Shown: positions 1 through 16,173 of the stretch, piece by piece
How positions within the stretch are numbered: the first letter of the stretch is position 1
How the letters are laid out: every line of letters begins with the position of its first letter
Assembly: GCF_000020385.1 (NCBI RefSeq)
Contig: NC_010814.1
Span: forward strand, 810,001 to 842,000
Origin: Trichlorobacter lovleyi SZ
GTDB lineage: Bacteria > Desulfobacterota > Desulfuromonadia > Geobacterales > Pseudopelobacteraceae
DNA: 32,000 nt
Direction of reading: 5' to 3'
Made by a program: the position numbers and the translations under genes
Notes under the pieces: generated by a model
Database searches by the model: none
Told to the model about the DNA's origin: nothing
The model's input: the letters and a program-made list of their open reading frames with translations, nothing else

Positions 1-120
1 ATTCCATTCTTATACTGTCATGATAACGTGCTGTTGAGAAATAGCGCTATAGCTAATAAACTTAAAGTTATTTCAAAAGATATGTCTATTCGTAGTATTA
101 CCAAAACATTGTATTTATAA
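1..120 (+). CDS. 3' end of an upstream gene entering from the left edge (product unknown)
   Basis: Frame 1 is open for 39 codons from base 1 to TAA at 118-120, in very AT-rich DNA where stops are normally frequent. No recognisable motif. Confidence 0.3.
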   Translation: MPFLYCHDNVLLRNSAIANKLKVISKDMSIRSITKTLYL

Positions 121-131
121 GGTTGCGTCAA

Positions 132-797
132 ATGGGAAAGACAGTATTTATAACTGGTGGTAGTAGAGGTATTGGCAAAGCGATAGTTGATGCATTTTCC
201 AGAAATGGATATACAATAATAGCGCCAACAAGGGCTGAAATGGACCTTTCTTCTGATAGTTCAGTATTGAATTATTTTGAACGTAACAAAATACAAGTTG
301 ATTGTATTGTCAATAATGCTGGTATAAATCCACTATCTCAAATTGAAAATGTAAATGATTGCGATATTGAAGAAGCTATAAATATTAATCTTAAAGCACC
401 TATACTCATTGTGAGATCTCTTGTCTCGAGTATGAAAGAACGGAAATACGGACATATTGTTAATGTCTCATCTATTTGGGGAGTAGTTTCAAAAGAAAAG
501 AGAACAGTTTATTCAATTACAAAAAATGGCTTACATGGTCTTACCAACACACTCGCCGTTGAGCTTGGCGCGTATAACATCCTCGTAAATACCGTATGTC
601 CAGGTTTCACTAATACGGAGCTTACTAAAAAGAATGTCTCCACTGATGAGGCAAAAGCTATTGCCACAAATATTCCTCTCGGCAGATTTGCAGAGCCTGC
701 TGAAATTGCTTCACTGATATATTTTCTTGGATCTGAACAAAATTCTTATATTACGGGTCAGAAAATAGTCATAGATGGAGGTTTTACAGTACTATGA
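132..797 (+). CDS. short-chain dehydrogenase/reductase (FabG-like classical SDR)
   Basis: N-terminal TGGSRGIGKAI dinucleotide motif, NNAG, and catalytic S...YSITK (YxxxK). The ORF track starts at TTG 123; the first ATG is at 132 with AAGG about 10 nt upstream. The stop overlaps the next start (ATGA). AT-rich codon usage. Confidence 0.9.
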   Translation: MGKTVFITGGSRGIGKAIVDAFSRNGYTIIAPTRAEMDLSSDSSVLNYFERNKIQVDCIVNNAGINPLSQIENVNDCDIEEAININLKAPILIVRSLVSSMKERKYGHIVNVSSIWGVVSKEKRTVYSITKNGLHGLTNTLAVELGAYNILVNTVCPGFTNTELTKKNVSTDEAKAIATNIPLGRFAEPAEIASLIYFLGSEQNSYITGQKIVIDGGFTVL

Positions 798-1864
798 ATA
801 TTAATTCTTATAATAAAACATACACTGTTGATACAGTAGATGTTATCGACTTGCAAAATTTTGTTGGTAGTTCTGTATACCTTATTGTTTTTGATAAGAA
901 AGTGTATGATATATATAAAGGCACTGCTTTTAAGGACTTAGATGTAAGTAGAGCTGTTTTTTTAGAGGCCGATGAGAATTGTAAGACTATTGATACTGCT
1001 GTTGAAATATGCAAAATAATGGCTGATATTCCATTTAATAAAAATAGTATCTTAATATCTATTGGGGGGGGAATCATACAGGATATAACTGGGTTTGCTG
1101 CCAATATATACAATAGAGGGATACGATGGATTTTTATTCCAACTACTCTTCTTGCGCAATGTGATAGTTGTATAGGCGGCAAAACATCATTAAATCTTAT
1201 GAATTATAAAAATATTCTGGGAACATTTTATGCGCCGGACAGGATAATGATCGATTTGAATTTTGTAACCACCTTGTCAGAAGACGATTATTTAAGTGGA
1301 CTTGGAGAAGTGGCAAAATTCAATATAATGGCTGCACATGACGGTATAGAGCTACTCGAAAGACACATTGATAGGCTTCTGCACCGAGATATTGAATGTC
1401 TGCGTGCCTTTTTGAAACGTTCTTTGGAGTTTAAGAAAAAATTTATTGAAGAGGATGAGTTTGATAAGGGTGTACGTAACCTCCTTAATTTTGCCCATAC
1501 CTTTGGTCATGCTTTTGAGTCTGTAAGCCATTACGCCATCCCGCACGGTCAGGCAGTTACATTGGGTTTGCTGATGGCTAATATGATCTCCTTTGATCGT
1601 GGGCTTCTTGACCACAATCTGAAGTGTCGGATAGAAAAACTGTGTGTACGGCTAATTTCAGTAAAGCTTGACTACCATTGGTTTGAGCCGAGTAGTATTA
1701 TTGGGGCAATGAAGAGGGATAAAAAGAGGACATCTGAGCAGTTGACGGCAGTGCTCTTTAAAAGCGATTTAGGGCTTGAAATTGTTCATGACTTAAGGCC
1801 TGAAGAAGTAGAGCGAAGCTTGCTTGAGCTGATTTCGTATCTTAAATTGAGCAAGCTTTGCTAA
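794..1864 (+). CDS. 3-dehydroquinate synthase-fold enzyme (sugar-phosphate cyclase / DHQS superfamily)
   Basis: Matches DHQS signature blocks: [55 protein letters not shown] and HGQAVTLG (metal and NAD ligand motifs). Translationally coupled to the SDR. AT-rich. Confidence 0.85.
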
Positions 1865-1928
1865 GCCTTTGTATTGTGTACAGAGATGGTATTCACTTTG
1901 TAGCATACCTCAACCAGTACATACAGAG

Positions 1929-3044
1929 GTGTTGACTTTGAACAAAAATATTCCTTTTCTTGATCTGAAGGCTGCTTATCTGGAACTTAAAGAAGAGCTG
2001 GACGCCGCCTATCATTCTGTTGTGGATTCCGGTTGGTATGTTCTTGGCAAAGAGGTTGACGCATTTGAGGCCGAGTTTGCCTCTTTCTGCGGCGTGCGGC
2101 ACTGTGTTGGTGTTGGTAACGGCCTGGATGCGTTGCATCTGATCCTGCGGGCCATGGATATCGGGCCGGGTGATGAAGTGATTGTGCCGGCCAATACCTA
2201 TATTGCCACCTGGTTGGCGGCCTCCTATGCAGGAGCAACTCCGGTGCCGGTGGAACCGGACGAGCAAACCTATAATATCAACAGCACCGGAATTGAGGCG
2301 GCAATTACTACCCGTACTAAAGCAATTCTGGTCGTCCATCTGTATGGCCAGCCCGCTGATATGGATCCAATCATTGATATTGCCCGCCGTTACAATCTTA
2401 AAGTGATTGAAGATGTTGCCCAGGCCCATGGGGCACGCTACAAGGGCCAACGCACCGGTTCTTTGGGCGATGCGGCTGGTTTTAGCTTTTACCCGGGTAA
2501 AAACCTTGGCGCCTTCGGAGACGGAGGGGCCGTAACAACCAACGATGCCGGTCTTGCCGAACGTATTCGGACGTTGCGTAACTACGGCTCAAAGGTTAAA
2601 TACCACAACGAGCAGAAAGGCTTTAATTCTCGTCTTGACGAGCTGCAAGCTGCTTTGCTGCGTGTTAAATTGAAATACCTGGACAGTTGGAACGCGCGTC
2701 GCGAGATACTTGCTGGCAGATACATGCTGGGTCTACAGGCTACAGGATTACAGCTGCCTTCTGTCCCTGAATGGGCGCAGCCGGTTTGGCATCTGTTTGT
2801 TATTGGATGTCGCAACCGTGAGCAGCTGCAGCAGCAGCTCACTGAAGCAGGGATCGGGACGATGATCCATTATCCGGTTCCTCCTCACCTGCAACCAGCC
2901 TATGCCGAACTTGGTCTCAAGGAAGGCAGCTTCCCTATCACTGAGCGTATTCATAGCACCGTACTCAGCCTTCCAATGTGGCCGCAGATGGATGAAAAAC
3001 AAATTCAGACGGTGATAGATGTCCTACTGGATATCACCTTTTAA
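1929..3044 (+). CDS. DegT/DnrJ/EryC1/StrS-family sugar aminotransferase (PLP-dependent, Lys present)
   Basis: [10 protein letters not shown] start region typical of the family, GNGLDALHL, and [21 protein letters not shown] with the Schiff-base Lys retained. The track start TTG 1869 adds an atypical 20-aa AT-rich extension. GTG 1929 (or TTG 1932/1938) is more likely. Confidence 0.9.
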
Positions 3045-3085
3045 GGACGAAGGCTTTGAGTGCCGGTGCACTTTGAGGTAGCCCC

Positions 3086-3199
3086 ATGCGCATCCTGATC
3101 ATCAAGATATCTTCCCCGGGGGATCTCAGCAAGGTCTTGACCGGACAGGGGGCTTGTAACGTGGGCAGGCCGGATGGAATGGCCGGCAAGGGCCGCTGA
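3086..3199 (+). pseudogene. decapitated heptosyltransferase gene start (37-codon relic ORF MRILIIKISSPGD...)
   Basis: The first 13 codons parallel the real GT9 start at 11789 (MKILIIKTSSLGD). The first 25 nt are identical to 10514-10538. A GAGG Shine-Dalgarno sits 6-7 nt upstream. The ORF ends in TGATG overlapping the next gene's ATG at 3199. Confidence 0.6.
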
Positions 3200-3912
3200 T
3201 GGGGGGATTTGAAGCGGTTATACTTGCCGGTGGCGCCGGAACCCGTCTGAGAAGCGTGGTCAGTGATCTGCCGAAACCGATGGCGGGTGTGGCCGGCCGG
3301 CCTTTTCTGGCGTATCAGCTGGACTACCTGGTGGCGTCGGGGGCTTCCCGTCTTATTCTGTCCGTCGGGTATCGCCGCGAAAAGATCATGGAGTTCTTTG
3401 GTGATCGGTATGCCGGCGTACCGGTCAGCTATGTTGTCGAAGAGGAACCCCTGGGAACCGGCGGCGCGATCAGGGAGTCGCTCAGGGCCGTGTGCGGAGA
3501 GAGTGCCCTGGTCCTGAACGGAGATACCTTTTTTCCGGTGGACCTGAACGGCATGCTGCGCACCCTCCATGCCAACGATTGCGGGCTGGTCATGGCAGTC
3601 AAGGAGCTGTTTCGGTTTGACCGCTATGGCACAGTTGTCATGGTTAAGGACCGGATAACCGGGTTCAGGGCAAAGGGCCTTTGCGAGCGGGGCTACATCA
3701 ATGGCGGCATCTATGCGGTGACAAAGGCCATCACGACCCTGTTCCCGGACAGGCAGGCGTTTTCCTTTGAAGCCGACTTTCTGGAACAGCAGGTCGGCCG
3801 GATCGGTGTCGTACCGTTTTGCAGTGACGCCTACTTTATCGATATCGGTATTCCTGAGGACTATCAGAGGGCCCAGCACGAATTACCGTTGCAGGGGGGT
3901 GAGAAGCGATGA
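3199..3912 (+). CDS. sugar-1-phosphate nucleotidyltransferase, HddC-like (D-glycero-alpha-D-manno-heptose-1-P guanylyltransferase family)
   Basis: AVILAGGAGTRLRSVVSDLPKPMAGVAGRPFL is the classic G-rich NTP-transferase loop in its HddC-like form, followed by EEEPLGTGGAI. Its stop overlaps the next start. Confidence 0.85.
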   Translation: MGGFEAVILAGGAGTRLRSVVSDLPKPMAGVAGRPFLAYQLDYLVASGASRLILSVGYRREKIMEFFGDRYAGVPVSYVVEEEPLGTGGAIRESLRAVCGESALVLNGDTFFPVDLNGMLRTLHANDCGLVMAVKELFRFDRYGTVVMVKDRITGFRAKGLCERGYINGGIYAVTKAITTLFPDRQAFSFEADFLEQQVGRIGVVPFCSDAYFIDIGIPEDYQRAQHELPLQGGEKR

Positions 3913-4904
3913 TTGTTACCAGGGCACCACACAGGATCTCGTTTTTTGGCGGTGGAACCGACTATCCTTCTTATTATCTTGAACATGGCGGCAAGGTTAT
4001 CGGCGGTGCCATCGATAAATACTGCTACATCACCTGCCGCGAACTGCCCCCGTTTTTTGAACACAAGCACCGCATCGTCTATTCCCGCATTGAAAACGTC
4101 AGCCACCTGGATGAGATCGTCCATCCCTCGGTTCGTGAGACCATGCGGTACATGGGGGTGACCACCGGTCTGGAGATTCATCATGATGGCGATATCCCGG
4201 CCCGTTCCGGCATGGGCTCAAGCTCCGCCTTTACGGTCTGTCTGCTCAAGACACTCTACGCCCTGCAGGGGCGGATCATCTCCCGCGAAAACCTGTATAA
4301 AGAAGCAATTTATATTGAGCAGGAGCTGATCAAGGAAAATGTCGGTTCCCAGGACCAGACCTTTGCCGCCTGCGGAGGACTCAACGTAATTGACTTCATG
4401 CAGAACGGCCAGATTGTGGCCCAGCCGCTGGTGATGGCGCCGGAGCGCCTGAAACGCTTTAAGGGGAAACTGATGCTGTTTTTTTCGGGCATCTCCCGTT
4501 TTGCTTCGGACATTGCCAAGGAACAGATCGACAACACCCATAAAAATCTGGACAGCCTGTCTGCCATGAAGGGGCTGGTGGACGACGCCTACGGCATCCT
4601 TACCTCGCCACAGGGCGACTTTGATGAGTTTGGCCGCCTCCTGCATGAAACCTGGCAGTACAAACGGGGGCTGTCCAGGCAGATGAGCACTTCTGAGATT
4701 GACTGCATGTACGAGACCGCCATGAAACATGGCGCAATCGGCGGCAAGTTACTGGGAGCCGGCGGCGGCGGCTTCATGCTCCTGTATGTGCCGGAAGAAC
4801 GCCAGGCTGAGGTTCGCCGGGCATTGGGGGGGTATTTGTTTATCCCGTTCGACTTTGATTTTTCCGGGGCACAGATTGTGGTCTACAAGCCGTCCTTTCA
4901 ATAA
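3909..4904 (+). CDS. GHMP-family sugar kinase, HddA-like (heptose-7-P 1-kinase family)
   Basis: RAPHRISFFGGGTDYPSYY N-terminus typical of HddA/COG2605 kinases, GHMP motif PARSGMGSSSAF, and C-terminal GKLLGAGGGGF. Confidence 0.85.
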   Translation: MIVTRAPHRISFFGGGTDYPSYYLEHGGKVIGGAIDKYCYITCRELPPFFEHKHRIVYSRIENVSHLDEIVHPSVRETMRYMGVTTGLEIHHDGDIPARSGMGSSSAFTVCLLKTLYALQGRIISRENLYKEAIYIEQELIKENVGSQDQTFAACGGLNVIDFMQNGQIVAQPLVMAPERLKRFKGKLMLFFSGISRFASDIAKEQIDNTHKNLDSLSAMKGLVDDAYGILTSPQGDFDEFGRLLHETWQYKRGLSRQMSTSEIDCMYETAMKHGAIGGKLLGAGGGGFMLLYVPEERQAEVRRALGGYLFIPFDFDFSGAQIVVYKPSFQ

Positions 4905-4934
4905 TAATCAGGTTTTTGTCACACGGAGTATACC

Positions 4935-5873
4935 ATGAAAAAACATGTCTTCATCACCGGCGGCGCCGGTTATCTCGGCTCAATCCTCTGTGAGCACCTG
5001 CTGGACAAAGGGTATCGGGTTACCGTCCTCGATTCGCTGATGTACGGAGAACAGAACCTTAATCACCTGTGCGCCAATCCTGATTTTGATTTTCATCGCG
5101 GTGATGCTCGTGATGAAAAACTGGTAGGCTCACTGATCAGGGATGCCGATGTCCTGATCCCCCTGGCTGCCATCGTCGGCGCACCGGCCTGCGACCTGGA
5201 CCCGCTCATGGCCAGCTCAACCAACCGTGACGCCATTGCGATGCTCTGTCGTATTCGCCGCCCTGAACAGCTGATCATCTACCCGACGACGAACAGCGGC
5301 TACGGCACCAAGACCGGCGACGTCTTTTGTACTGAAGAGTCGTCCCTTGACCCGATCTCGCTCTACGGACGGACCAAGTGCGAGGCAGAGGAGATCGTCC
5401 TGGCCGCAGGCAACTCGATTACCCTGCGGCTGGCCACCGTCTTCGGCATGTCTCCCCGGCCGCGCCTTGATCTGCTGGTCAACCACTTTACCTATGCCGC
5501 ATTTTTTGACGGCTATCTGGTGATCTTTGAAAAGGACTTCAAACGCAACTACGTCCATATCCGCGACGTTGCTGACTGCTTTATCCACTGCATCGAGAAT
5601 CCGGCACGGATGACCGGGCGTCCGTTCAACGTCGGTCTGGATGCCGCCAACCTTTCCAAAGAGGAACTGGCACTGAAGATCAAGGAGCATATTCCCCGAT
5701 TCTACCTGCATTTCTCTGAAGTAGGCAGCGACCCGGACAAGCGCAACTACATTGTCTCCAACCAGCGCCTGGCCGATGTCGGTTTTGTTGCCAGGCGTTC
5801 CCTGGATGAGGGGATCCGCGAGTTGATCAAAGGCTATCGCCTGATCGGGCGGATGCCGTGCAAAAATATTTAA
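4935..5873 (+). CDS. NAD-dependent extended SDR (sugar-nucleotide epimerase/4-ketoreductase type, probably not a 4,6-dehydratase)
   Basis: ITGGAGYLGS Rossmann motif and YGRTKCEAE (YxxxK). The position where 4,6-dehydratases carry S/T-D-E reads TTNSGYG. GGAG SD upstream. Confidence 0.85.
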   Translation: MKKHVFITGGAGYLGSILCEHLLDKGYRVTVLDSLMYGEQNLNHLCANPDFDFHRGDARDEKLVGSLIRDADVLIPLAAIVGAPACDLDPLMASSTNRDAIAMLCRIRRPEQLIIYPTTNSGYGTKTGDVFCTEESSLDPISLYGRTKCEAEEIVLAAGNSITLRLATVFGMSPRPRLDLLVNHFTYAAFFDGYLVIFEKDFKRNYVHIRDVADCFIHCIENPARMTGRPFNVGLDAANLSKEELALKIKEHIPRFYLHFSEVGSDPDKRNYIVSNQRLADVGFVARRSLDEGIRELIKGYRLIGRMPCKNI

Positions 5874-6011
5874 ATCCGATCCCATTTCAAGGCGCAATCT
5901 TCGTTGGTTCGTTTCCGTCTCCTTGATGTACTGCGTGTACACCTGCGTCGCCGGATTTCTCACCGCCTTGATATCATCCTTGAACTGGAATCGGAATAAG
6001 GAGCCCATCCT

Positions 6012-6833
6012 ATGACACGAGAACTGTCAGAACTGACAGCCAAGGCCCGCTGGGTCTGGAGTGAGACGCTGCGGATGCACCGCCTGGCGCCCGAGACCAG
6101 AGTCGCCTCATCGCTGTCGGCGGTGGAGATCTTTACCGCGCTGTACTATGGCGGGGTGCTGGAACACAACGGTGCCGACCCGCGCTGGGAAGGGCGGGAC
6201 CGTCTGATCGTCAGCAAAGGGCACGGTTCGATCTGCCTCTTTCCTATCCTGGCTGACCGGGGCTATTTTGCCATGGCCGAGCTGGATCGGATCTGTCAGC
6301 CCGGATCGTTTCTGGGGGGGATTCCGGATACCATTATTCCCGGCTACGAGACCATCAACGGTTCATTGGGGCACGGTATCGGTGTAGGCTGCGGCGTGGC
6401 CCTGGGCCTCAAGCGCAAGGGGGCTGCCCGTCACGTCTTCGTGGTGGCCGGTGACGGCGAGTTCTGTGAGGGCTCCATGTGGGAGGGGATTATGTTCGCA
6501 GCCCATCACCAACTGGACAACCTGACCCTGGTCATTGACAATAACAGGCTTTGCATGCTGGACCGCTGCGAAAAGATCATGACGGTTGAACCGTTCGAGC
6601 AACGTTTTCAGGCCTTTGGCTGGCAGACGGAGCGGGTTGACGGCCATGACATGGCTGCCGTACTGGGTGCCCTGTCCCGCTTGAAACTACGCGGCGCGAC
6701 CGGCTGTCCGGCCGTATTGATCGCGGATACGGTCAAGGGAAGAGGGGTGCCGGAGCTGGAGAACGACACGCTCTGTCATATCCGTACCCTGACGCCGGAC
6801 GAGATTGACCGTGCTACCGGAGGTGTGCGATGA
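6012..6833 (+). CDS. transketolase, N-terminal (ThDP/PP-binding) subunit
   Basis: SKGHGS, GSLGHGIGVGCGVAL, and the GDGEFCEGSMWEG...N ThDP-binding motif. AAGGAG SD 8 nt upstream. The stop overlaps the next start. Confidence 0.9.
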   Translation: MTRELSELTAKARWVWSETLRMHRLAPETRVASSLSAVEIFTALYYGGVLEHNGADPRWEGRDRLIVSKGHGSICLFPILADRGYFAMAELDRICQPGSFLGGIPDTIIPGYETINGSLGHGIGVGCGVALGLKRKGAARHVFVVAGDGEFCEGSMWEGIMFAAHHQLDNLTLVIDNNRLCMLDRCEKIMTVEPFEQRFQAFGWQTERVDGHDMAAVLGALSRLKLRGATGCPAVLIADTVKGRGVPELENDTLCHIRTLTPDEIDRATGGVR

Positions 6834-7780
6834 GTGCCGCTCAGATCATGACCATGCGGGATGCCTTTATCGGTACCCTTTGTGATCGTATGGCCGCTGA
6901 CCATTCCATCTTCTTCCTGGCTGCCGACCTGGGGGCGCCGGCCCTGGACCGGATGCGGAGCGAGTTTCCCGAGCGCTTTATCAACGTGGGCATTGCCGAG
7001 CAGAACCTGATCAACGTCGCCTCCGGTCTGGCGCTGGAAGGCTTCAGCGTCTACACCTATGCCATTGCCCCCTTTATTACCATGCGGGCCTATGAGCAGG
7101 CCAGGGTCAATCTGGCGGTCTCATCGCAGATCCGGCCGGTCAAGGTAACCATGCTCGGCCTGGGGGGCGGTGTCAGTTATGTGGTTTCAGGACCAACGCA
7201 TCACTGCCTGGAGGATCTGGCCATTATGCGGCTGCTCCCCAATATGTCGGTCTACTGCCCGGCGGACTGGGTCACGGCAGGGGCACTTGTCGATCATACC
7301 CGCAGTACGAACGGCCCCGCCTATATCCGTTTTGACGGCAAGGCGCTCCCGGCACTGTATGCGGAACCGGCAACCGTCAACCTGCCCCGGGGGTTCAGCC
7401 AGCTGGTGCAGGGAACGGCTACCTGTCTGGTCAGCACCGGCTTTATGACCCATCGGGCGCTGGCGGTGGCGCAGCAACGCCCCGGTGTTGCCGTCATTGA
7501 CCTTTATTCTCTCAAACCGTGCGACGAGCAGGCCCTGGCAACCGCGTTGCGCCCCTACAACCGGGTGATCAGCATGGAGGAGGGCTTCATCAATAACGGC
7601 GGCCTTGACAGCCTGGTTGCCAAGGTGATCCGTGAATATGAACTGCCGTGCCGCCAGGAGTCGGTCGGTTTTAATGATCGCTATGTCTTTGATCTGGGGA
7701 ACCGCGACCATCTGCACGGCATCAACGGCATGGATGAGGCGGCGGTGATCGCGCTGATTGACCGGCGGAGGGATGTATAG
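6830..7780 (+). CDS. transketolase, C-terminal (pyrimidine-binding + C-terminal domain) subunit
   Basis: FINVGIAEQNLINVASGLALEG and SGPTHHCLEDLAIMRLLPNM are typical of split-transketolase/DXS-like beta subunits. Abuts the next ATG directly. Confidence 0.9.
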   Translation: MSAAQIMTMRDAFIGTLCDRMAADHSIFFLAADLGAPALDRMRSEFPERFINVGIAEQNLINVASGLALEGFSVYTYAIAPFITMRAYEQARVNLAVSSQIRPVKVTMLGLGGGVSYVVSGPTHHCLEDLAIMRLLPNMSVYCPADWVTAGALVDHTRSTNGPAYIRFDGKALPALYAEPATVNLPRGFSQLVQGTATCLVSTGFMTHRALAVAQQRPGVAVIDLYSLKPCDEQALATALRPYNRVISMEEGFINNGGLDSLVAKVIREYELPCRQESVGFNDRYVFDLGNRDHLHGINGMDEAAVIALIDRRRDV

Positions 7781-9250
7781 ATGGCCGCTGTTGATATCGT
7801 TCTGATTAACCCGGGTGACCGTAAACAGGTCTATCAGGGATTGGGGGTCGAACTGGCCGCCATCGAACCGCCCTTCTGGGTGGCGGTCATCGCCGCCTAC
7901 CTGCGCCAGGAGGGGTTCCGGGTGGCCATCATTGACGCCAATGCCGAGAACAGTGCGCCGGCCGAGACCGCTCAGCGGGCTGCGGCACTGCAGCCGCTGC
8001 TTTCCTGTGTGGTCGTGTATGGTTCGCACCCTTCCGCTTCAACCCAGAACATGACCATTGCCGGCGCCATCTGTCGTGCCCTGACCGCGGAATCGGCAGG
8101 CCGGGTGGCCCTGTCCGGGCTGCATCCCTCGGCACTTCCCGAACGGACCATGCGCGAAGAGGCGATTGATTTTGTGGTGGAAGGTGAAGGGCCGGATACC
8201 CTCCGGACACTGCTTGGCGAACTGGCCGCACCGGCCCCTGATCTGTCACGGGTGCCCGGCCTCTGGTACCGCGAAGGGGAGCTGCTCCGTTCCACCCCGC
8301 GGGCGCCGTTGATCAGCGATCTGGACCGTTACCTGCCGATCGCTGCCTGGGACCTGCTGCCGATGCATGTCTACCGTGCCCATAACTGGCACTGCTTTGA
8401 CGATATCGGGCACCGTTCTCCCTATGGGGCCGTCTATACCAGCCTCGGTTGTCCTTACAACTGCATTTTCTGTTGTATCAACGCCCCCTTCGGCAAGCCG
8501 GGGATCCGCTACCGTTCACCGGAACGGGTGGTGGAGGAGATCGCCCTGCTGGCCAATGACTACGGGGTCAAGAACCTGAAGATCGTTGACGAACTGTTTG
8601 TGCTCAAAGAGCAGCATTACATGGCCATTGTGGACGGGATCATTGAACGCGGGCTGGATCTGAATATCTGGGCCTATGCCCGGGTGGACACGATCAAGAC
8701 CGCCAACCTGGCCCGGATGAAACAGGCCGGGATCAACTGGCTGGCCCTGGGGATCGAGTCGGCCAGCCCGGATGTGCGCGACGGCGCCGACAAACGGATG
8801 CAGGCGCGCGATATCAAGGAGGTGGTCCGTTCCATCCGGGAACAGGGCATCAGGATCATCGGAAACTTCATTTTCGGCCTGCCGGATGATACCCGTGAGA
8901 CCATGGAGGAGACCCTGCAGCTGGCCATGGAGCTCAACTGCGAATTTATCAATTTCTACTGTGCCATGGCCTATCCCGGCTCCAGGCTGTATGATCTGGC
9001 CGTGGAACAGGGCTGGGAACTGCCGGTCGCCTGGCATGGCTTCTCCCAGCACGGCTACGACATGCTGCCGCTGCCTACCCGTACCCTGGCTGCCCGCGAG
9101 GTGCTGCAGTTCCGCGACGACGCCTTTCATCGTTATTTTGCCAACCCGGTCTACCTGGATATGGTGGAGCAGGCCTTTGGGGCCGGGGTCAGGGAACACC
9201 TGGTGGAGATGAGTGCCACCCGTTTAAAAAGAAAACTTCTGGGAAACTGA
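7781..9250 (+). CDS. B12-binding-domain radical SAM enzyme (class B rSAM; methyltransferase or rearrangement type)
   Basis: N-terminal Rossmann-like cobalamin-binding region (VAIIDANAEN...VVVYGSHPS). CxxxCxxC cluster in YTSLGCPYNCIFCC. Later radical-SAM core blocks (GIESASPDV, NFIFGLPDDT). Confidence 0.85.
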   Translation: MAAVDIVLINPGDRKQVYQGLGVELAAIEPPFWVAVIAAYLRQEGFRVAIIDANAENSAPAETAQRAAALQPLLSCVVVYGSHPSASTQNMTIAGAICRALTAESAGRVALSGLHPSALPERTMREEAIDFVVEGEGPDTLRTLLGELAAPAPDLSRVPGLWYREGELLRSTPRAPLISDLDRYLPIAAWDLLPMHVYRAHNWHCFDDIGHRSPYGAVYTSLGCPYNCIFCCINAPFGKPGIRYRSPERVVEEIALLANDYGVKNLKIVDELFVLKEQHYMAIVDGIIERGLDLNIWAYARVDTIKTANLARMKQAGINWLALGIESASPDVRDGADKRMQARDIKEVVRSIREQGIRIIGNFIFGLPDDTRETMEETLQLAMELNCEFINFYCAMAYPGSRLYDLAVEQGWELPVAWHGFSQHGYDMLPLPTRTLAAREVLQFRDDAFHRYFANPVYLDMVEQAFGAGVREHLVEMSATRLKRKLLGN

Positions 9251-9254
9251 AATC

Positions 9255-10526
9255 ATGCACAAACGTCAAATCCCCTTTGGGACCATCACCATTACAGAAT
9301 CAGCCAAGCGCCTGATCGTGGAATCGCTGGAGACCAAGCGGATATCCTGCGGCAAGCTGGTCCGTGAATTTGAAAACCGCTTTGCAGGACTGCTGGGTGT
9401 CAAGGAGGCGGTTGCCGTCAGCACCGGCACCGATGCCGACACCCTTGCCCTGGCCGTGCTGCATGACTTCGGCGCCCGGCGTGGCGACGAGGTGATTGTT
9501 CCGGCCCTCTCGTTTGTCGCCACCGGCAATGCCGTGCTGCATGCCGGCTTTACACCGGTCTTTGTCGATATCGAGCGGGAGACCCTGAATATTGATCCGG
9601 CCGGGATCGAGGCCGCCATTACCCCCCGTACCCGAGCCATCATGCCGGTGCATCTGATGGGCAAGCCGGCCGAGATGGATACCATCAACGCCATTGCCAA
9701 AAAACATGGCCTGCTGGTGGTGGAGGATGCCGCTGAGGCCCATGGGGCGCTCTACAAGGGGAAGCCGGCCGGCAGCCTGGCTGACCTGGCAGCCTTCAGT
9801 ACCTATGTGGCCCACATCATCACCACCGGTGAGGGGGGGGTCATTACCACCAACAACGAACAGTACGGCGAGATCCTCCGTTCGCTACGCTCCCACGGCC
9901 GGAACTGCACCTGCAAACACTGCATCATGAATACCGATACGGTGACCTATTGCGCCAAGCGTTTCCGGGGTGAAGGTGGCGAGGATGTCCGCTTCACCTT
10001 TGACCGGATCGGCTATTCCTGCAAGATGAACGAGCTGGAGGCGGCCATCGGCATCGGCGCCATGGAGGTGTACCACGAGATCCTGAAAAAGCGGCATGAC
10101 AACCTGCTCTACGTCCTGGAACGTTTCGACCGTTTTGCCCCCTGGCTCTCCACCATCAAGGAAGAGGCCCATGAACAGATCGGTCCCCATGCCATTCCGA
10201 TCATCATCAACGAAGGGGCACCCTTCAGCCGTGCCGATCTGACCCACTACCTTGAGCAGAACGGCATTGAGACCCGCACCCTCTTCGCCTCAATGCCGAC
10301 CCAGTGCCCCGGTTTTGCCTATCTGGGGTATCGGTTGGGGCAGTTTCCGAACGCTGAATATATGGGGCTCAACGGTATTCATATCGGTGTGCATCAGGAC
10401 GTGGGGATCGAGGATATGGAGTATGTCTTGACAATACTGGGACAGTTTCTTCAAAACTCGGGGCCTGACGGCTCCAGCAGGCCACAGCGGTCCTGGATGA
10501 GGACCGTTCAGGCATGCGCATCCTGA
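9255..10526 (+). CDS. RfbH/DdhC (E1)-like PMP-dependent sugar 3-dehydrase (DegT fold, catalytic Lys replaced by His, Cys cluster)
   Basis: DegT-fold blocks are present, but FSTYVAH(187)IITTGEGG has His where aminotransferases have Lys, as in E1 and ColD. RSHGRNCTCKHCIMNTDTVTYCAKRF (C218,C220,C223,C233) resembles the RfbH Fe-S region as I recall it ([21 protein letters not shown]). The last ~20 aa and the TGA stop lie in junction/repeat DNA. Confidence 0.8.
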   Translation: MHKRQIPFGTITITESAKRLIVESLETKRISCGKLVREFENRFAGLLGVKEAVAVSTGTDADTLALAVLHDFGARRGDEVIVPALSFVATGNAVLHAGFTPVFVDIERETLNIDPAGIEAAITPRTRAIMPVHLMGKPAEMDTINAIAKKHGLLVVEDAAEAHGALYKGKPAGSLADLAAFSTYVAHIITTGEGGVITTNNEQYGEILRSLRSHGRNCTCKHCIMNTDTVTYCAKRFRGEGGEDVRFTFDRIGYSCKMNELEAAIGIGAMEVYHEILKKRHDNLLYVLERFDRFAPWLSTIKEEAHEQIGPHAIPIIINEGAPFSRADLTHYLEQNGIETRTLFASMPTQCPGFAYLGYRLGQFPNAEYMGLNGIHIGVHQDVGIEDMEYVLTILGQFLQNSGPDGSSRPQRSWMRTVQACAS

Positions 10527-10540
10527 TCATCAAGATATAG
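10514..10540 (+). repeat. second decapitated heptosyltransferase start (8-codon ORF MRILIIKI*)
   Basis: ATGCGCATCCTGATCATCAAGATAT is 25/25 identical to 3086-3110 and 21/25 identical to the real GT9 start at 11789-11813. Followed immediately by TAG and AT-rich DNA. Confidence 0.6.
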
Positions 10541-10552
10541 CCTTTAGTTTTT

Positions 10553-10591
10553 ATGCAATATGAAGGTTTTGGTTGCGAATTGCATTTTTTT
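10553..10591 (+). terminator. weak terminator-like hairpin plus T-run
   Basis: ATGCAAT (10553-10559) pairs with ATTGCAT (10579-10585) and is followed by TTTTTTT. The stem is short and AT-rich with a long loop, so this is tentative. Confidence 0.3.
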
Positions 10592-10607
10592 GGCGTAGGG
10601 TGTCTCC

Positions 10608-11792
10608 ATGTTTGCCAGAACCATCACACCAACCCTGTTATCCCTTGCAACGGAATTTCCGGTTGTTACGATCACCGGCCCTCGTCAGAGTGGTAAGACA
10701 ACCCTGTGCCGTACAACCTTTCCCGATAAACCCTATATCAATCTTGAACAACCCGAAACACGGCAATTTGCCAAGGAAGATCCCAAGGGCTTCTTGGCGA
10801 CAATCCCTGATGGCGCTGTCCTGGATGAGATTCAGCGTGTGCCTGATCTCCTCTCGTATATCCAGGTGCTGGTTGATGATAAACCGGCGGCAGGCCGGTT
10901 TATTCTGACGGGCAGCCAGCAGTTTGAAGTGATGAATACCATCAGTCAGTCCCTGGCGGGCAGGACGGCGCTTTTAAAGCTGTTGCCACTCAGTATCGAA
11001 GAACTGACAACTGCGGGTGTTACTGCTTCTTCCAGTCAGCTCATTCTGAACGGGTTCTATCCCCGTATCCATAGCCAGCGGCTTAATCCGACGCGTGTGC
11101 TGAGTGACTATTTTGAGACCTATGTCGAGCGGGATCTCCGTCAGTTGGTCACGCTTAAAAATCTCGGCCTGTTTGAAAAGTTTGTTCGTTTGTGCGCCGG
11201 AAGAGTCGGGCAGCTTCTTAACCTGCAAGGGCTGGGGGCGGAAGTTGGCGTTTCCCATTCAACGGCACGCGAATGGTTGACGTTGCTTGAGGCCAGTTAT
11301 GTTGTGTTTCAGCTGCGACCCTGGCACAGCAACATTTCAAAGCGATTGATCAAGTCTCCGAAACTCTATTTCTACGATGTTGGGCTTGCAAGCTATCTGC
11401 TGGGGCTGGAAACTGAGTCGCAGGTGGGGCGTGACCCTTTACGCGGCAATCTCTTTGAAAATATGGCGATCATTGAGGCCCTAAAATATTGTTACAACCG
11501 GGGCAAAAAGGGGGCAGCCTCTTTTTACCGGGATAGCAACGGCAATGAAGTGGACCTGGTGATGGAGGTCGGGCCAGACCTGTTTCCCGTTGAGATTAAA
11601 TCAGCCGAAACCATAGTGCCGGAATTTTTCAAAGGGCTTGTATCGTTCTCGAAGATAGCCCCTAAAGTACTGCTTGGCGCTGGCCTCGTGTATGGCGGGA
11701 CAGAGCAGCAGAAACGTACAGCCGGAGAGGTCTGGCCGGTTACCAGGATGCATGAGATGCTGGATGGCGTCTATTGCCGTGAGACTGTATGA
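10608..11792 (+). CDS. AAA+ ATPase of the AAA_14/DUF4143 family
   Basis: FPVVTITGPRQSGKTTL Walker A in the characteristic N-terminal context, ILDEIQ-type Walker B (VLDEIQRVP), and a C-terminal DUF4143-like region (NGNEVDLV...VEIK). The stop overlaps the GT9 start (ATGA). Confidence 0.85.
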   Translation: MFARTITPTLLSLATEFPVVTITGPRQSGKTTLCRTTFPDKPYINLEQPETRQFAKEDPKGFLATIPDGAVLDEIQRVPDLLSYIQVLVDDKPAAGRFILTGSQQFEVMNTISQSLAGRTALLKLLPLSIEELTTAGVTASSSQLILNGFYPRIHSQRLNPTRVLSDYFETYVERDLRQLVTLKNLGLFEKFVRLCAGRVGQLLNLQGLGAEVGVSHSTAREWLTLLEASYVVFQLRPWHSNISKRLIKSPKLYFYDVGLASYLLGLETESQVGRDPLRGNLFENMAIIEALKYCYNRGKKGAASFYRDSNGNEVDLVMEVGPDLFPVEIKSAETIVPEFFKGLVSFSKIAPKVLLGAGLVYGGTEQQKRTAGEVWPVTRMHEMLDGVYCRETV

Positions 11793-12850
11793 AAATCCTG
11801 ATCATCAAGACATCTTCCCTGGGTGATATCATCCACGCCTTGCCGGTGCTGGAGTACCTCCGGCAGGCGGAGCCCGCTGCCACCATTGACTGGGTGGTGG
11901 ACGAGGCGTTTGTTGATCTGGTGTCCGGTAACCCGTTGATCAACCGTGTGCTGACGGTTGCCTTCCGGCGCTGGAAAAAGGCTCCCTTTGCCCGACGTAC
12001 CCGGCGGGAGCTGGTGTCGTTTATTCAGACGCTGCGGCAGGAACGCTACGACCTGATCTTTGATCTGCAGGGCAACCTCAAGAGCGGCCTGGTCTGCGCT
12101 TTTGGACGTGCCCCGCTGAAGGTCGGTTTCAGCAGGGCGCATCAGCAGGAACGTCTCAATGCCCTCTTTACAAACCGCAAGGTCGGCTTTCTTCCGCCGG
12201 ACAAAAATGCCGGCCAGCGTTACCTGCGAATTGTCAGTGCCCCCTTCGCCCTGCCCCCCGAGTCGGTTGTCCCCCATGGCGATATCTATACCTCCCCTGA
12301 GGACAATGCCCACGCACAGCAGATGATTGGTGGGGCGGCGGGGCACCCCCTGATGCTGTTTCATAACGGCACCACCTGGACAACCAAGCTCTGGCATGCA
12401 GAGGGCTGGAAGCAGCTGGCAGACGCCCTGCTGCTGCATTATCCGCAGGCCACAATCCTGCTGTCATGGGGTACTGCGGAAGAGCGCATGCTTGCAGAGG
12501 AGATTGCCCGCCATATCGGTGACCGTGCCGTTGTGCTCGGGAAGATGTCGCTCAAACAGTTTGTGGCGGTGTTGAAACGGGTTGATCTGGTGGTGGGGGG
12601 CGATACCGGGCCGATCCATCTGGCCGCTGCCGTGGGGACGCCAACCGTCTCCTTCTACCGTTGTACGGATGGCTCATTGAACGGGCCGCTGGGAAGAGAT
12701 CATATGATTGTGCAATCGCCATTGCCCTGTACCAAATGTCTGCGCAAGAGCTGCGAACGGGATGAGGAGTGCAGAAAGAGCATCAGCGTCAAGGCCATGC
12801 TGACCGCAGCGGAGTCCTGCCTTGACCATGGGAAAGCGGCAGCCCTGTGA
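11789..12850 (+). CDS. waaC: GT9 ADP-heptose:LPS heptosyltransferase, WaaC-like
   Basis: MKILIIKTSSLGDIIHALPVL, DWVVDE, AFRRWKKA, DLQGNLKS and VGGDTGPIHLAAAVG parallel E. coli WaaC blocks as I recall them. Confidence 0.8.
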   Translation: MKILIIKTSSLGDIIHALPVLEYLRQAEPAATIDWVVDEAFVDLVSGNPLINRVLTVAFRRWKKAPFARRTRRELVSFIQTLRQERYDLIFDLQGNLKSGLVCAFGRAPLKVGFSRAHQQERLNALFTNRKVGFLPPDKNAGQRYLRIVSAPFALPPESVVPHGDIYTSPEDNAHAQQMIGGAAGHPLMLFHNGTTWTTKLWHAEGWKQLADALLLHYPQATILLSWGTAEERMLAEEIARHIGDRAVVLGKMSLKQFVAVLKRVDLVVGGDTGPIHLAAAVGTPTVSFYRCTDGSLNGPLGRDHMIVQSPLPCTKCLRKSCERDEECRKSISVKAMLTAAESCLDHGKAAAL

Positions 12851-13854
12851 AGATCGCACTGGTCAGACTTTCATCCCTGGGAGACATCGTCCTCTGCATG
12901 GCCTCATTGCAGGTGATCAGGCAGGCCTTTCCCGACTGCCGGATCACCTGGGTCACGGATCAGAGGTTTGCCGGTCTGCTTGACTGCCAGCCGGATGTTG
13001 AGCAGGTCATCGCCCTTGATCTGAAGGGGATCAAGAAACGTCCCAGCTGGTCCGGTCTGGTCGCGCAGTTTCAGGCCTTGCGTTCCGCCGGTCCGTTTGA
13101 CCGGGTAATCGATCTGCACGGCATGATCAAGTCCGCGGTTGTCGGGTCGCTGCTGGGGGGCAGGCAAGACGGTTTTGCCAGATCATGCCGGAAGGAGTCA
13201 CTGGCCGGTCTTTGGTACCGCGAGGCCTATAGCATCCCCTATGACCTGCCGGCCACCGTGCGCTATACCCTGCTTGTCTGCAGGGCACTGGGCATCGCTT
13301 GCAGCCCTGCAGAGGCGGCGGCCTATCCGCAACGCCCGTACATGCATTGGCAGAAGTGTGATGAAGCGGTGCTGGAACCCTATCTGAGCGACCAGGCAAA
13401 AAATGTGCTGATTGTACCGGGAACCAGCGCGCCGAACAAGAATTACCCGCCGGAGCAGTTTGCAGCCGTGGCCAACCTGTTGAAGCTGAACCTGCTCGTC
13501 TGCCATGGCAATGACGCCGAGTATGCGGCTGCGCTGACCATTGCCGGGCATGCCCCCCACGTCAGGGTGCTGCCGCGGCTTCGCCTGGGGGAACTCAAGG
13601 CATTGGCCGGTCGCATGGATCTGGTGATTGGCGGCGATTCCGGGCCGACGCACCTCGCATTGGCCAGCGGCGTGCCGTCGATCACGCTGTTTGGTGCAAC
13701 GCCGGTCTGCTTTACGCCGGGTCTGCGGAACAGGGTGATCAAGACCGCTACGGTGCCGAATCTGCTGAAGCCGGACCCCCATGACCTTTCAGTGGCAGAG
13801 ATACCGGCCGGTCAGATTGCCGATCTGGCTGCTGAACTGCTTGCAGGGAGCTGA
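12847..13854 (+). CDS. second GT9-family LPS heptosyltransferase
   Basis: MKIALVRLSSLGDIVL, DLHGMIKSA and IGGDSGPTHLALASGVP. GTG start in a GTGA overlap with the previous stop. Heptosyltransferase I versus II cannot be decided by eye. Confidence 0.8.
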   Translation: MKIALVRLSSLGDIVLCMASLQVIRQAFPDCRITWVTDQRFAGLLDCQPDVEQVIALDLKGIKKRPSWSGLVAQFQALRSAGPFDRVIDLHGMIKSAVVGSLLGGRQDGFARSCRKESLAGLWYREAYSIPYDLPATVRYTLLVCRALGIACSPAEAAAYPQRPYMHWQKCDEAVLEPYLSDQAKNVLIVPGTSAPNKNYPPEQFAAVANLLKLNLLVCHGNDAEYAAALTIAGHAPHVRVLPRLRLGELKALAGRMDLVIGGDSGPTHLALASGVPSITLFGATPVCFTPGLRNRVIKTATVPNLLKPDPHDLSVAEIPAGQIADLAAELLAGS

Positions 13855-13858
13855 ACAA

Positions 13859-14587
13859 GTGCAGTCTGTACCTGGATATGAGCAGATTTTTTCCCGCACG
13901 TCACTGCTGATTGGTGATGCCGGACTGCGGCGCCTGGCTGCGGCGCGGGTGCTGATTGCCGGTGTCGGCGGGGTGGGCAGTTGCGCGGTAGAGGTGTTGG
14001 CCCGGGCCGGAATGGGACGTTTGACGCTGGTTGACAGTGATACGGTTCAGGTCAGCAATATCAACCGTCAGCTGCATGCCCTGACAACCACGCTTGGGCA
14101 GCCCAAGGTGAGGGTGATGGCGGAGCGGCTGCTGCAGATCAACCCCGGTCTGCAGGTGGTCCCGCTGCAGGAGCTGATTACTCCTGACAATGTCTCAGAT
14201 CTGCTGGAGCCGGGCTATGACCTTGTGCTTGATGCGATTGACAGCTTTGGCGCCAAGCTGGCATTGCTACAGAACTGTGTTGAATGTCAAATTCCGGTGA
14301 TTTCAAGCATGGGAGCGGCCGGCAAGCTTGATCCGACCCGGATTCAGATTGCCGATATTGCCGACAGCCAGGGCTGCCGCCTGGCCCGTAAACTGCGTAA
14401 GGAGCTGCGTCGCAGTGGTATTTCCACTGGTGTGACGGTGGTCTATTCCGATGAACCGTGCAGCCTCGAATGTCTGGGGGAGCCGGAGACGGAAGGAGAA
14501 CGTCGTCCGTTAGGCACGATCTCCTACCTGCCTGCTGCCTTCGGGCTGTTTATGGCCAGTGCCGCGATCAGGCGTCTACTTGGCTGA
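13859..14587 (+). CDS. tcdA: tRNA threonylcarbamoyladenosine dehydratase (ThiF/E1-like, TcdA/CsdL family)
   Basis: IAGVGGVGSCAVEVLARAG, LVDSDTVQVSNINRQ, MAERLLQINP and DAIDS follow E. coli TcdA closely. The track start 13781 overlaps the GT9 gene by 74 nt. The in-frame GTG at 13859 just after that stop is preferred. Confidence 0.85.
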   Translation: MQSVPGYEQIFSRTSLLIGDAGLRRLAAARVLIAGVGGVGSCAVEVLARAGMGRLTLVDSDTVQVSNINRQLHALTTTLGQPKVRVMAERLLQINPGLQVVPLQELITPDNVSDLLEPGYDLVLDAIDSFGAKLALLQNCVECQIPVISSMGAAGKLDPTRIQIADIADSQGCRLARKLRKELRRSGISTGVTVVYSDEPCSLECLGEPETEGERRPLGTISYLPAAFGLFMASAAIRRLLG

Positions 14588-15608
14588 GTGCTTCGCTACT
14601 TTCTACATGCATCTTTGATTCTACACCATTACGTCCCCGCTCCTTTACCAGATAGAGCGCCCTGTCTGCCCGCTGCAAAAGACTTTCCGGTGTGTCATCG
14701 GCATGGACTTCAGCTACGCCGATGGAGAGGGTTACCTTGAACTCGGTCCCATCCAGGATGAAACGGCTTTCACGGATATTGGTGCAGATTTTTTCAGCAA
14801 GTACCGTTGCCGGCTGCAGGCTGGCCTTGATCAGTATCAAAGCGAATTCGTCCCCGCCAAAACGGGCCAGAAAATCGCTCTCCCGCAGGGAGGCCTTGAT
14901 CTTGAATGCAACCCCCTTCAAGATCCGGTCGCCAGCCTGGTGGCCATGGCTGTCGTTGATGTTCTTGAAGTAATCAACATCAATCATCATCAGCGAGAAC
15001 GGCTCGTTGTAACGCTGGTGCAGCAGGATCATTTCCAGCAGTTTTTCATCAAAGTAGGCCCGGTTGGCCAGTTGGGTCAGGCCGTCAATCCGCACGGCGG
15101 TCTTCAAGGTCTCAATCTGTTCACGCTGGGTCGCAAGTATTGCCTGAGAACTGGCAAGTTCTCCCTTAAGCTCGCTGTTGCTGGCTATCACCCGGTCAAT
15201 TTCGGCAATCAGCAACGCATGGGCAGCAGCCAGGTCACTGGGCAGGCCGGTCTGATCTATTGTTGCCCGGACCTCGTTTAAGGCGTGGGAGGAGTCGCTG
15301 GCAGCCTGATCCGTCCGATTGATCACTGATGCCAGTGAAAGCAGGATACTGCGGATGGTCTGAGCCGAATCGCTGATTTGCTGTTCGCGCGGGTCAACCT
15401 GCCCGGCCGACGGTGTCTCCACCCCCCGCCGGGCCTTGGCAAGATCTGATCTTTTCTGGAAATAGTCGACAATGGCGCTGAACGGTGCGGTAACAATCTG
15501 TCCGATCAGGTCCAGCACGTAATTGATGCCGTCAGACTTCAGCATCCGTGCGAAGGGGTGCAGCATCAGTCCAACAAGCAGCCCTCCGCTGAAGATAAAC
15601 CAGGTCAT
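14568..15608 (-). CDS. membrane-anchored diguanylate cyclase (GGDEF domain with I-site)
   Basis: N-terminal hydrophobic segment, long coiled-coil, then DVDYFKNINDSHGHQAGD and RESDFLARFGGDEF (RxxD five residues before GGDEF). The 3' end overlaps tcdA by 20 nt (convergent). Confidence 0.9.
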   Translation of the reverse strand: MTWFIFSGGLLVGLMLHPFARMLKSDGINYVLDLIGQIVTAPFSAIVDYFQKRSDLAKARRGVETPSAGQVDPREQQISDSAQTIRSILLSLASVINRTDQAASDSSHALNEVRATIDQTGLPSDLAAAHALLIAEIDRVIASNSELKGELASSQAILATQREQIETLKTAVRIDGLTQLANRAYFDEKLLEMILLHQRYNEPFSLMMIDVDYFKNINDSHGHQAGDRILKGVAFKIKASLRESDFLARFGGDEFALILIKASLQPATVLAEKICTNIRESRFILDGTEFKVTLSIGVAEVHADDTPESLLQRADRALYLVKERGRNGVESKMHVESSEALSQVDA

Positions 15609-15630
15609 CGTCTGCTCTCCCGGAGGATAC

Positions 15631-16104: not shown

Positions 16105-16173
16105 TGACTATACCTCCATGAAGTAGTGATGACGGGTCATACCGTACCATCTTTTTCAAAGAATGCCAGTTTC

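Follow-up and report, generated by a model that had tools for sequence, protein, structure and literature searches.

Three copies of a heptosyltransferase gene start in Trichlorobacter lovleyi: a live start and two probable scars of one-ended recombination in a mosaic lipopolysaccharide locus

The DNA examined in this work is a stretch of 32,000 nt from Trichlorobacter lovleyi SZ (NC_010814.1, positions 810,001-842,000, forward strand; hereafter the window), in which the start of a gene for a heptosyltransferase I-like glycosyltransferase of family GT9 is present in three copies, R1, R2 and R3. These copies are probably one live gene start (R3) and two scars (R1 and R2) of repeated one-ended recombination in a mosaic lipopolysaccharide (LPS) locus. 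Judged by its genes and by comparison with relatives, the locus forms the border between a hypervariable region of LPS genes and a conserved GT9-GT9-ThiF core in the T. lovleyi group. The scars delimit two blocks, one of sugar genes and one with an ATPase gene; each block has a start signature of its own, relatives are polymorphic for the blocks, and the stubs left behind decay neutrally. The route by which the blocks arrived was most likely homology-facilitated illegitimate recombination (HFIR) or a related single crossover of a circularised fragment. The arrangement of the window recurs in several independent assemblies (L001-L007 and L104; labels L001-L109 denote the related or homologous loci that were compared with the window).

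The identity of the 25-mer ATGCGCATCCTGATCATCAAGATAT at the beginning of R1 (3086-3110) and R2 (10514-10538) had been noticed by a model that read the letters alone (the sequence-only reading). The identity is exact and extends to 26 nt when the preceding C is included (3085-3110 and 10513-10538), and no match to the 25-mer appeared in 100 dinucleotide shuffles. The live start R3 (11789-11813) agrees with the 25-mer at 21 of 25 positions, as that reading had stated, and the four differences could be located: codon 2, CGC in the 25-mer, is AAA in the live gene, and the T at nt 22 is replaced by C. A repeat finder added the live start (11788-11813) at 81% identity and gave copy spacings of 7428 and 1275 nt, in agreement with the two bracketed cassettes of ~7.4 and ~1.25 kb that had been proposed, while the exact repeat shared by R2 and R3 amounts to 16 nt. 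The similarity of R1 to the live gene, also part of the earlier description, continues to about position 3144 (48 nt at 83%, repeat finder), and the local alignment score of 59 was reached by none of 2000 shuffles, the number used for each relic alignment. R1 has kept a GAGG ribosome-binding site, 7 nt upstream of its ATG. R2, in turn, is an 8-codon stub that reads MRILIIKI before TAG, and the TGA at 10524-10526 within it is the stop of the RfbH-like open reading frame (ORF) at 9255-10526, just as had been described. The T that R1 and R2 share at nt 22 need not be a pseudogene mutation, because the live GT9 gene of L090 has Ile at the codon holding this nucleotide. A reading of the 25-mer as a generic dispersed repeat was rejected: in the window it has three sites only, in the related loci it occurs only at GT9 starts and their relics, and a metagenome scan with a degenerate 25-mer returned two loci, L089 and one unrelated GT9 start. 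The assignment of the 25-mer to GT9 genes thus stood.

The closest view of the locus without blocks is offered by L008, in which the DegT tail leads straight into a GT9 gene starting ATGCGCATCCTGATCATCAAGACAT. The 3′ tail of DegT and the spacer behind it in the window are homologous to the sequence directly before GT9 in L008, and since the L008 spacer aligns with the sequence before R1, R1 is the original start of the gene, still in place. Against the functional L008 start, R1 is identical at 25/26 positions, then at 12/14, and then at 12/20, which gives 37/40 for nt 1-40. The corresponding relic R1′ is strongly decayed in L096, L097 and L089, and that of L096 reaches only 30/40 in the same comparison. 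R1 and the R1′ of L096 share 65% identity, whereas the sugar genes next to them differ at only 9-15% of third positions; the divergence between the two relics is at the level found around DegT. In L089, L096 and L097, R2 has acquired an insertion of 1 nt. The RfbH-like stop is polymorphic as well: positions 10494-10496 read TGG in the window and TAG in L089, L096, L097 and L104, where the gene consequently ends 10 codons earlier, with a product of 413 aa instead of 423 aa. RfbH-like homologues have 400-410 aa and cover 94-95% of the query, and the last ~20 codons of the window gene are a read-through into the spacer and R2. The decay of R1′, the indel in R2 and the polymorphism of the RfbH-like stop together show that the stubs are unconstrained and decay neutrally, and on this comparison we regard them as scars and not as conserved elements.

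Close relatives present four structural haplotypes on one downstream backbone, GT9(-GT9)-ThiF, which is common to L008, L094 and L096 and to L104 as far as its contig reaches. The first, L008, has no blocks; its flanks encode proteins 95-98% identical to those of the window, with values of 97-99% given for the SDR and the cyclase and 95-96% for the GT9 proteins. The second is that of the window, DegT-R1-sugar-R2-ATPase-GT9. In the third, found in L094 and independently in L105, the blocks are swapped: DegT is followed by a decayed relic, the ATPase, a 12-nt relic (GTGAAAATCCTGA), the sugar block and a live GT9 gene, and the position of R2 is held by the live start ATGCGT. The fourth (L096, L097 and L089) keeps the window order behind a different upstream region, consisting of genes for a methyltransferase, a HAD protein, two FdtA proteins and DegT′. 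By blastn, the sugar block of the window (3194-10535) matches L094 3978-11265 at 89.9%, the ATPase block (10541-11801) matches L094 2687-3948 at 90.0%, and the downstream sequence (11795-21774) matches L094 11250-21228 at 90.9%, while the upstream DegT region is only 72% identical between the two. The expectation that relatives would differ in the presence and placement of the blocks was therefore borne out by L008, L094/L105 and L096/L097.

The order in which the blocks arrived can be read from their start signatures. The ATPase block always ends with ATGAAAATCCTGA and the sugar block with ATGCG(C/T)ATCC; in every haplotype the ATPase gene is followed by (A/G)TGAAAATCCTGA, and the RfbH-like gene by a shared spacer of ~45 nt and then ATGCG(C/T)ATCCTGATCATCAAGA. 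From these block-specific signatures it follows that each block brings a GT9 start of its own. In the window, codon 2 is the sugar-linked CGC in the stub R2 and the ATPase-linked AAA in the live gene; L094 shows the converse, with AAA in the stub and CGT in the live gene. In both haplotypes the stub thus matches the older block in its signature and the live gene matches the newer block, which points to the newest block as the one adjoining GT9. The simplest reading of these sequences is that the ATPase block was added after the sugar block in the lineage of the window, and before it in the lineage of L094. Serial insertion with a decapitated start left at each event, as the sequence-only reading had envisaged, fits the codon-2 signatures of the stubs. 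In addition, the window and L094 haplotypes differ in the points at which the block leaders are cut, so repeat recombination alone cannot turn one order into the other.

According to the mechanism we favour, blocks would have been added repeatedly right upstream of GT9. Each incoming block would carry the 5′ end of a GT9 gene, giving a complete GT9 gene after the block, and its other end would be joined illegitimately to the resident GT9, at a point between a few and a few dozen bases within the gene. The resident start would stay as a dead stub before the new block, and the newest block would adjoin GT9. In the window, the sugar block would have come first, leaving R1, followed by the ATPase block, leaving R2 with its CGC codon. 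The homologous flank is indeed one-sided, as GT9-GT9-ThiF and further genes are collinear at 89-98% in all close haplotypes, while on the other side the upstream sequence is 72% identical or unrelated and the joint positions, six in number, are non-homologous. Within GT9 the joints lie at +12 (L094), +25 (window), ~+51 (the relic Ra of L094, whose alignment score was reached by 16 of 2000 shuffles), +57 (window and L096) and ~+58 (L093). In L093, a relic of ~58 nt of the GT9 start stands before the ATPase gene, with a core identical at 24/26 positions and a score reached by 0/2000 shuffles. In L098 the ATPase gene lies between two direct copies, 66 nt long and 94% identical, of a GT2 gene start, with the joint at +66. 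This anatomy, in which only one flank is conserved, the opposite joint is non-homologous and part of the anchor is duplicated, points to one-ended recombination. Microhomology is hinted at only by ATCCTGA, 7 nt that are shared at the joint of L094, and a 12-nt stub with only 7 nt shared argues for an illegitimate joint, not for a crossover within a short repeat.

The homology anchor is more likely to be GT9 with the conserved downstream genes than the first 25-40 nt of GT9, which had been proposed for this role. Of that proposal, the part concerning position is retained, as the illegitimate joint falls there (+12 to ~+58), while the short segment was not found to act as an anchor. Plausibly, the location of the joints within 66 nt of the start codon reflects a filter and not the mechanism itself: a joint further upstream would truncate the preceding gene, as genes overlap or nearly touch, and a much longer stub would be a repeat long enough to delete the block again. 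One-ended recombination yielding insertions or partial duplications of the homologous segment has been documented experimentally in Escherichia coli, where circularised fragments that enter by a single crossover duplicate a part of the locus homologous to them (PMC3240628). HFIR has likewise been described experimentally in Acinetobacter, Streptococcus pneumoniae and Pseudomonas stutzeri (cited in PMC5361080), and has been proposed for sequentially displaced arrays of type VI secretion system (T6SS) and Rhs modules (PMC5361080).

Several observations weigh against one-ended recombination as the full account. Simple HFIR alone does not predict six joints within 12-66 nt of the anchor start, and selection or repeat instability must be invoked for their clustering. 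The 26/26 identity of R1 and R2 requires an extra step, as R1′ of L096 has decayed: since R1 is identical to the L008 start at 37/40 positions and to R2 at 26/26, and R1′ at only 30/40, a later conversion or crossover appears to have renewed the 5′ part of R1 (nt 1-40). L008 could have arisen by secondary deletion and not represent the ancestral empty state. The predicted intermediate with the sugar block only was not found among the relatives compared, and the type with only the ATPase is present solely in the more distant L090, L092 and L093. Finally, no donor genomes were identified with which microhomology at the joints could be scored.

It is also conceivable, although rather unlikely, that the GT9 start itself is the recombination site. 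Blocks flanked by direct repeats would then loop out as circles and re-enter at any copy of the start, be it in the genome they left or in a different one, by a single crossover, in an integron-like manner with no dedicated integrase. Direct repeats do flank both blocks of the window (26 nt exact for R1/R2, 16 nt for R2/R3), and single crossovers of circularised fragments that duplicate part of the homologous locus are known from the E. coli work mentioned above (PMC3240628). The L008 start, with R1-like codons 1-2 followed from codon 3 by the sequence of L096 R3, is what a deletion between R1 and R3 predicts. Three relics have lengths of ~51-58 nt, close to that of the conserved N-terminal motif of GT9, where the DNA of the gene is conserved best, and the relics of L093 and L098 are 92-94% identical to their live copies despite the old association with the ATPase. 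However, this explanation predicts a fixed relic length for each block, while the relic before the ATPase has 25 nt in the window and ~51 in L094, and that before the sugar block 57 nt in the window and 12 nt in L094. The 7 nt at the L094 joint are too short for a RecA-type crossover, the differently cut leaders again stand in the way of converting one order into the other by repeat recombination alone, and no circle or deletion junction was observed. A broader form of the idea, which we hold to be similarly doubtful, would make the first ~20 codons of GT9 (of GT2 in L098) a recombinase-free cassette dock, at which blocks are excised, re-inserted and permuted by the recombination of the cell, and where a left-over start is sometimes reused as an upstream ORF feeding ribosomes to the first gene of the block.

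Retention of the copies as functional elements, such as leader peptides or translational-coupling devices, is in our estimate very improbable. The relic ORF that begins in R1 had been described as a 37-codon frame ending in TGATG on the first cassette gene, and this holds, the ATG of the first sugar gene lying at 3199. It is open and TGATG-ended in three haplotypes formed through two independent joints: the window, L096 (3871-3984, 37 codons) and L094 (3936-3983, 15 codons). Together with the GAGG site of R1, this could speak for a maintained function, and coupling of the relic ORF to the nucleotidyltransferase gene may be possible as far as the sequence allows. On the other hand, the peptide is unconserved, with 16/37 residues identical between the window and L096, two in-frame joints would arise by chance in about 1 of 9 cases, and the nucleotidyltransferase gene has an AGGG/AAGGG site of its own, 6-7 nt before its ATG. 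R2 is a short stub with a frameshifting insertion in related strains, and function would account for the retention of the copies and not for their origin. A simple scan found no sigma-70 promoters or terminators around either relic, and a search of the whole window returned no Rfam families.

The ATPase is the subject of another explanation, according to which a gene with a PD-(D/E)XK nuclease-family domain would be a selfish or homing-like element inserting at the 5′ ends of genes and duplicating their starts. Relics of the downstream gene start precede the ATPase in four contexts (window/L096, L094, L093, and L098 with its GT2 target), DUF4143 is catalogued as a PD-(D/E)XK family (PMC3424549), and the ATPase family is very widespread, with inter-domain transfers (PMC12988326). 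The GC content at third codon positions (GC3) of the ATPase gene, 0.46-0.57, is below that of its neighbours, 0.63-0.71, in all lineages. Nevertheless, R1 and the 12-nt stub of L094 are scars of the same kind left by the sugar block, at joints that do not border the ATPase. A general role of the ATPase in making gene-start repeats was rejected, as none of six plasmid-borne homologues (35-50% identity) has significant flanking repeats; flanking direct repeats are equally missing around the ATPase in L090, L092 and L100, and no viral relatives were found in a scan of viral contigs. With the four-fold sites saturated, the ATPase is an old resident and no recent hopper, and an origin of the copies by such an element is most unlikely. 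Least probable of all is a conventional site-specific element (integron, integrative island or transposon) that used the GT9 start as its att site or target with a recombinase encoded outside the window. Direct repeats of a target-gene part around inserted DNA are typical of att sites and a newest unit beside a fixed point resembles attI insertion in integrons (PMC5361080), yet there are six joint positions and no single crossover point, the blocks have no common end sequences, their ends have no terminal inverted repeats or attC-like hairpins, and no integrase or transposase domain occurs in the 20-kb related loci apart from one unrelated IS1595-family copy in L008. In line with the sequence-only reading, no integrase or transposase domain is present among the large ORFs of the window, and no integrase domain among the called genes of L094 and L096.

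Table 1. Coordinates of the scars, the two blocks and their flanks in the window (other loci are named where they apply)
Feature	Position	Strand	Remarks
DegT/DnrJ-type aminotransferase	1869..3044	+	last gene of the variable upstream block; PF01041, 1.4e-123
Original DegT-GT9 spacer with GAGG	3045..3085	+	aligns with the L008 spacer ...CTTGAAATAGCCCC ATG
Relic R1	3086..3144	+	first ~57-59 nt of a GT9 gene, still at the original position
Relic ORF, 37 codons	3086..3199	+	GT9 start in frame with the sugar-block leader; TGATG end
Sugar-block leader	3145..3198	+	...GCCGGAT..GG..CGCTGATGG, common to L094 3949-3985 and L096 3931-3986
Sugar gene 1, HddC-like sugar-1-phosphate nucleotidyltransferase	3199..3912	+	PF00483; NF049965 at 1.7e-66, under the curated cutoff
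Sugar gene 2, GHMP (HddA-like) kinase	3909..4904	+	PF00288, PF08544; NF049969 under the cutoff
Sugar gene 3, NAD-dependent epimerase/dehydratase	4935..5873	+	PF01370
Sugar genes 4-5, split transketolase	6012..7780	+	N-terminal part 6012-6833, C-terminal part 6830-7780; PF00456, PF02779, PF02780
Sugar gene 6, B12-binding radical SAM enzyme	7781..9250	+	PF02310, PF04055
Sugar gene 7, RfbH-like DegT-family enzyme	9255..10526	+	PF01041
Relic R2	10514..10538	+	first 25 nt of a GT9 start, carried with the sugar block; codon 2 = CGC
ATPase-block leader	10539..10607	+	conserved, partly palindromic motif at ~10553-10590
AAA_14 + DUF4143 ATPase with PD-(D/E)XK family domain	10608..11792	+	PF13173, PF13635; PADLOC PDC-S01 candidate defence gene
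Leader motif sites	window 10553-10590; L094 2700-2740; L090/L092 ~3945-3985; L093 ~1022-1060; L098 4942-4980, 6283-6318		
Live heptosyltransferase I-like GT9	11789..12850	+	PF01075; TIGR02193, 238.2 bits against a cutoff of 185.3
Downstream anchor, second GT9 and ThiF-family gene	12847..14587	+	from the backbone comparison

With regard to the ATPase block itself (Table 1), the protein matches the PDC-S01 profile PDLC04790 of PADLOC at 5.8e-99 and is by this family match a candidate defence protein; PDC-S01 is very common but unvalidated (PMC12988326). Its stop overlaps the ATG of GT9 as ATGA. The homologues in L090, L092 and L093, 81-84% identical in protein, lie directly upstream of GT9 and overlap it, with ThiF following; over L090, L092, L093, L098 and L100 the identity is 66-84% (76% for the L098 homologue), compared with ~50% for the neighbouring GT9 and ThiF proteins of L090, L092, L093 and L098. 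A recent horizontal transfer of the ATPase between distant Geobacteraceae, which the contrast of 81-84% with ~50% could have indicated, was dismissed: at four-fold sites the window gene and those of L090, L092 and L093 are 0.33-0.39 identical, that is, saturated, as are GT9 and ThiF. Since these sites are saturated, the high protein identity across lineages points to purifying selection. From these comparisons, the ATPase is an old, strongly conserved resident, kept under purifying selection, of LPS and glycosyltransferase clusters in the Geobacteraceae/Desulfuromonadales. The earlier view of two cassettes consequently needs to be amended: both blocks are polymorphic, but the ATPase is no recent foreign cassette. 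A sequence search of the PDB with the ATPase gave no match. A homologue with 43% identity was observed in an arabinose operon on plasmid pEMTOL02 of Emticicia oligotrophica (L109, 1989-3155), in opposite orientation between araD and araA and with no flanking repeats.

Just upstream of every ATPase copy, the motif TTTTATG(C/T)AAT-N14-(C/G)TTGC(A/G)AATT(G/A)CAT is found, and the alignment of the leader over 8 loci shows the invariant columns TG.AAT...TTGC.A...CA. In L098 it also precedes the GT2 gene. The motif may serve as a promoter or an operator, although the sigma-70 scan was negative.

The seven genes of the sugar block, considered together (HddC- and HddA-like enzymes, a split transketolase, a B12 radical SAM enzyme and an RfbH-like enzyme), suggest the synthesis of an unusual modified heptose or a branched deoxysugar. 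The same seven genes (window 3199-10526) are present in other Geobacteraceae in a different order, with the epimerase first (L095 4034-11215 and L102 3980-11212), where they adjoin genes for TPR proteins and are far from any GT9 gene. In these loci the epimerase precedes the nucleotidyltransferase; the 3′ end of the epimerase gene was considered as a source of the sugar-block leader and rejected, as no similarity was seen.

On both flanks of the blocks the identity profiles characterise the locus as a recombination mosaic, and along GT9-ThiF they are too mosaic for placing a single crossover. Upstream, the gene order is SDR, an AroB-like cyclase (TIGR04425) and the DegT aminotransferase. The first two, an SDR and a TIGR04425 AroB-like sugar phosphate cyclase gene, occupy window 1-1750, have a very low GC content (32-35%) and are 97% identical in DNA to L008, while downstream genes are only 80-89% identical; this contrast may be taken as a sign of a recent exchange of the upstream block. 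In L008, a gene for an IS1595-family transposase (1313-1963) has replaced most of DegT. Downstream, the second GT9 gene (12847-13854) scores 231.9 bits with TIGR02193, also over the cutoff of 185.3, and both GT9 genes are by this curated cutoff predicted to encode heptosyltransferase I. The distant L090, L092, L093 and L098 have a single GT9 gene and ThiF, with other genes in between. Within the ThiF region (13889-14600), identity to L096 falls to 44-76%, while the flanking GT9 genes are 91-99% identical, which by its profile makes this region a putative further recombination patch inside the supposedly conserved anchor. In L003, another assembly of this same organism, the segment 6204-9275 (window 17369-20484) holds a PAS histidine kinase and a response regulator called as a fusion of 1023 aa; elsewhere the same pair is called as 865 + 158 aa.

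In regard to known systems, the classical replacement of LPS, lipooligosaccharide (LOS), O-antigen and capsule clusters proceeds through two homologous flanks and leaves no scar, whereas here each event added a block without exchanging another and left part of the flanking gene as a stub. The LOS locus of Campylobacter is bounded by the heptosyltransferase genes waaC and waaF. The LOS locus classes of this genus resemble the present case in having a hypervariable region, a conserved heptosyltransferase border, recombination and mosaic identity (PMC7248181). HFIR and the single-crossover integration of circularised fragments share with our locus a single homologous flank, another end joined with no homology and genes added beside the anchor, and in the E. 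coli study most products had a partial duplication of the homologous locus, which is the anatomy found here (PMC3240628). The duplications in E. coli measured 109-950 bp, compared with 12-66 nt here (PMC3240628), and, in contrast to the laboratory events, ours are deduced from natural haplotypes and the duplicated pieces always include the start codon of the anchor gene.

The displacement arrays formed by orphan immunity genes of the Vibrio cholerae T6SS and by orphan toxin tips of Rhs and contact-dependent inhibition (CDI) systems are also comparable, as modules are added beside an anchor and older ones are pushed away (PMC5361080). There, too, the order of arrival is recorded, remnants of displaced genes and strain polymorphism are seen, no integrase is involved, and HFIR has been proposed (PMC5361080). 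The locus described here is rather a mirror image of such arrays: the anchor (GT9-GT9-ThiF) is downstream and the scars are 5′ gene starts instead of 3′ ends, the older blocks are complete and apparently functional and not decapitated, and the cargo consists of LPS sugar genes and a candidate defence ATPase, not of toxin-immunity pairs. With integron arrays it has in common that promoterless or self-contained units are stacked at a fixed point, with the newest closest and an order that varies by strain. It differs from them in having no IntI, attI, attC or fixed crossover point, and in its units of 1.3 and 7.4 kb with no common ends. Transposons and insertion sequences differ in turn, as here there is no transposase, no terminal inverted repeats, and a duplicated target of variable length (12-66 nt). 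Our findings describe a variant form of recombination scar, probably produced by a known process, one-ended recombination, and they reveal no new class of mobile element.

The locus can be regarded as a readable record of the growth of a surface-polysaccharide region, in which stubs and codon-2 signatures tell which block arrived last, and relatives keep the alternative outcomes: empty, ATPase before sugar block, and sugar block before ATPase. One-ended recombination, known mainly from laboratory transformation and from toxin-immunity arrays, thereby becomes testable as a natural route, one by which an LPS locus would gain complete sugar pathways as well as a candidate gene for phage defence. 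LPS itself serves phages as a receptor. If a cassette dock did exist at this site, LPS-modifying and defence genes could shuffle within a population. Finally, the PDC-S01 ATPase-nuclease, as a long-standing and strongly conserved tenant of Geobacteraceae LPS loci, offers a lead on the function of a very common family.

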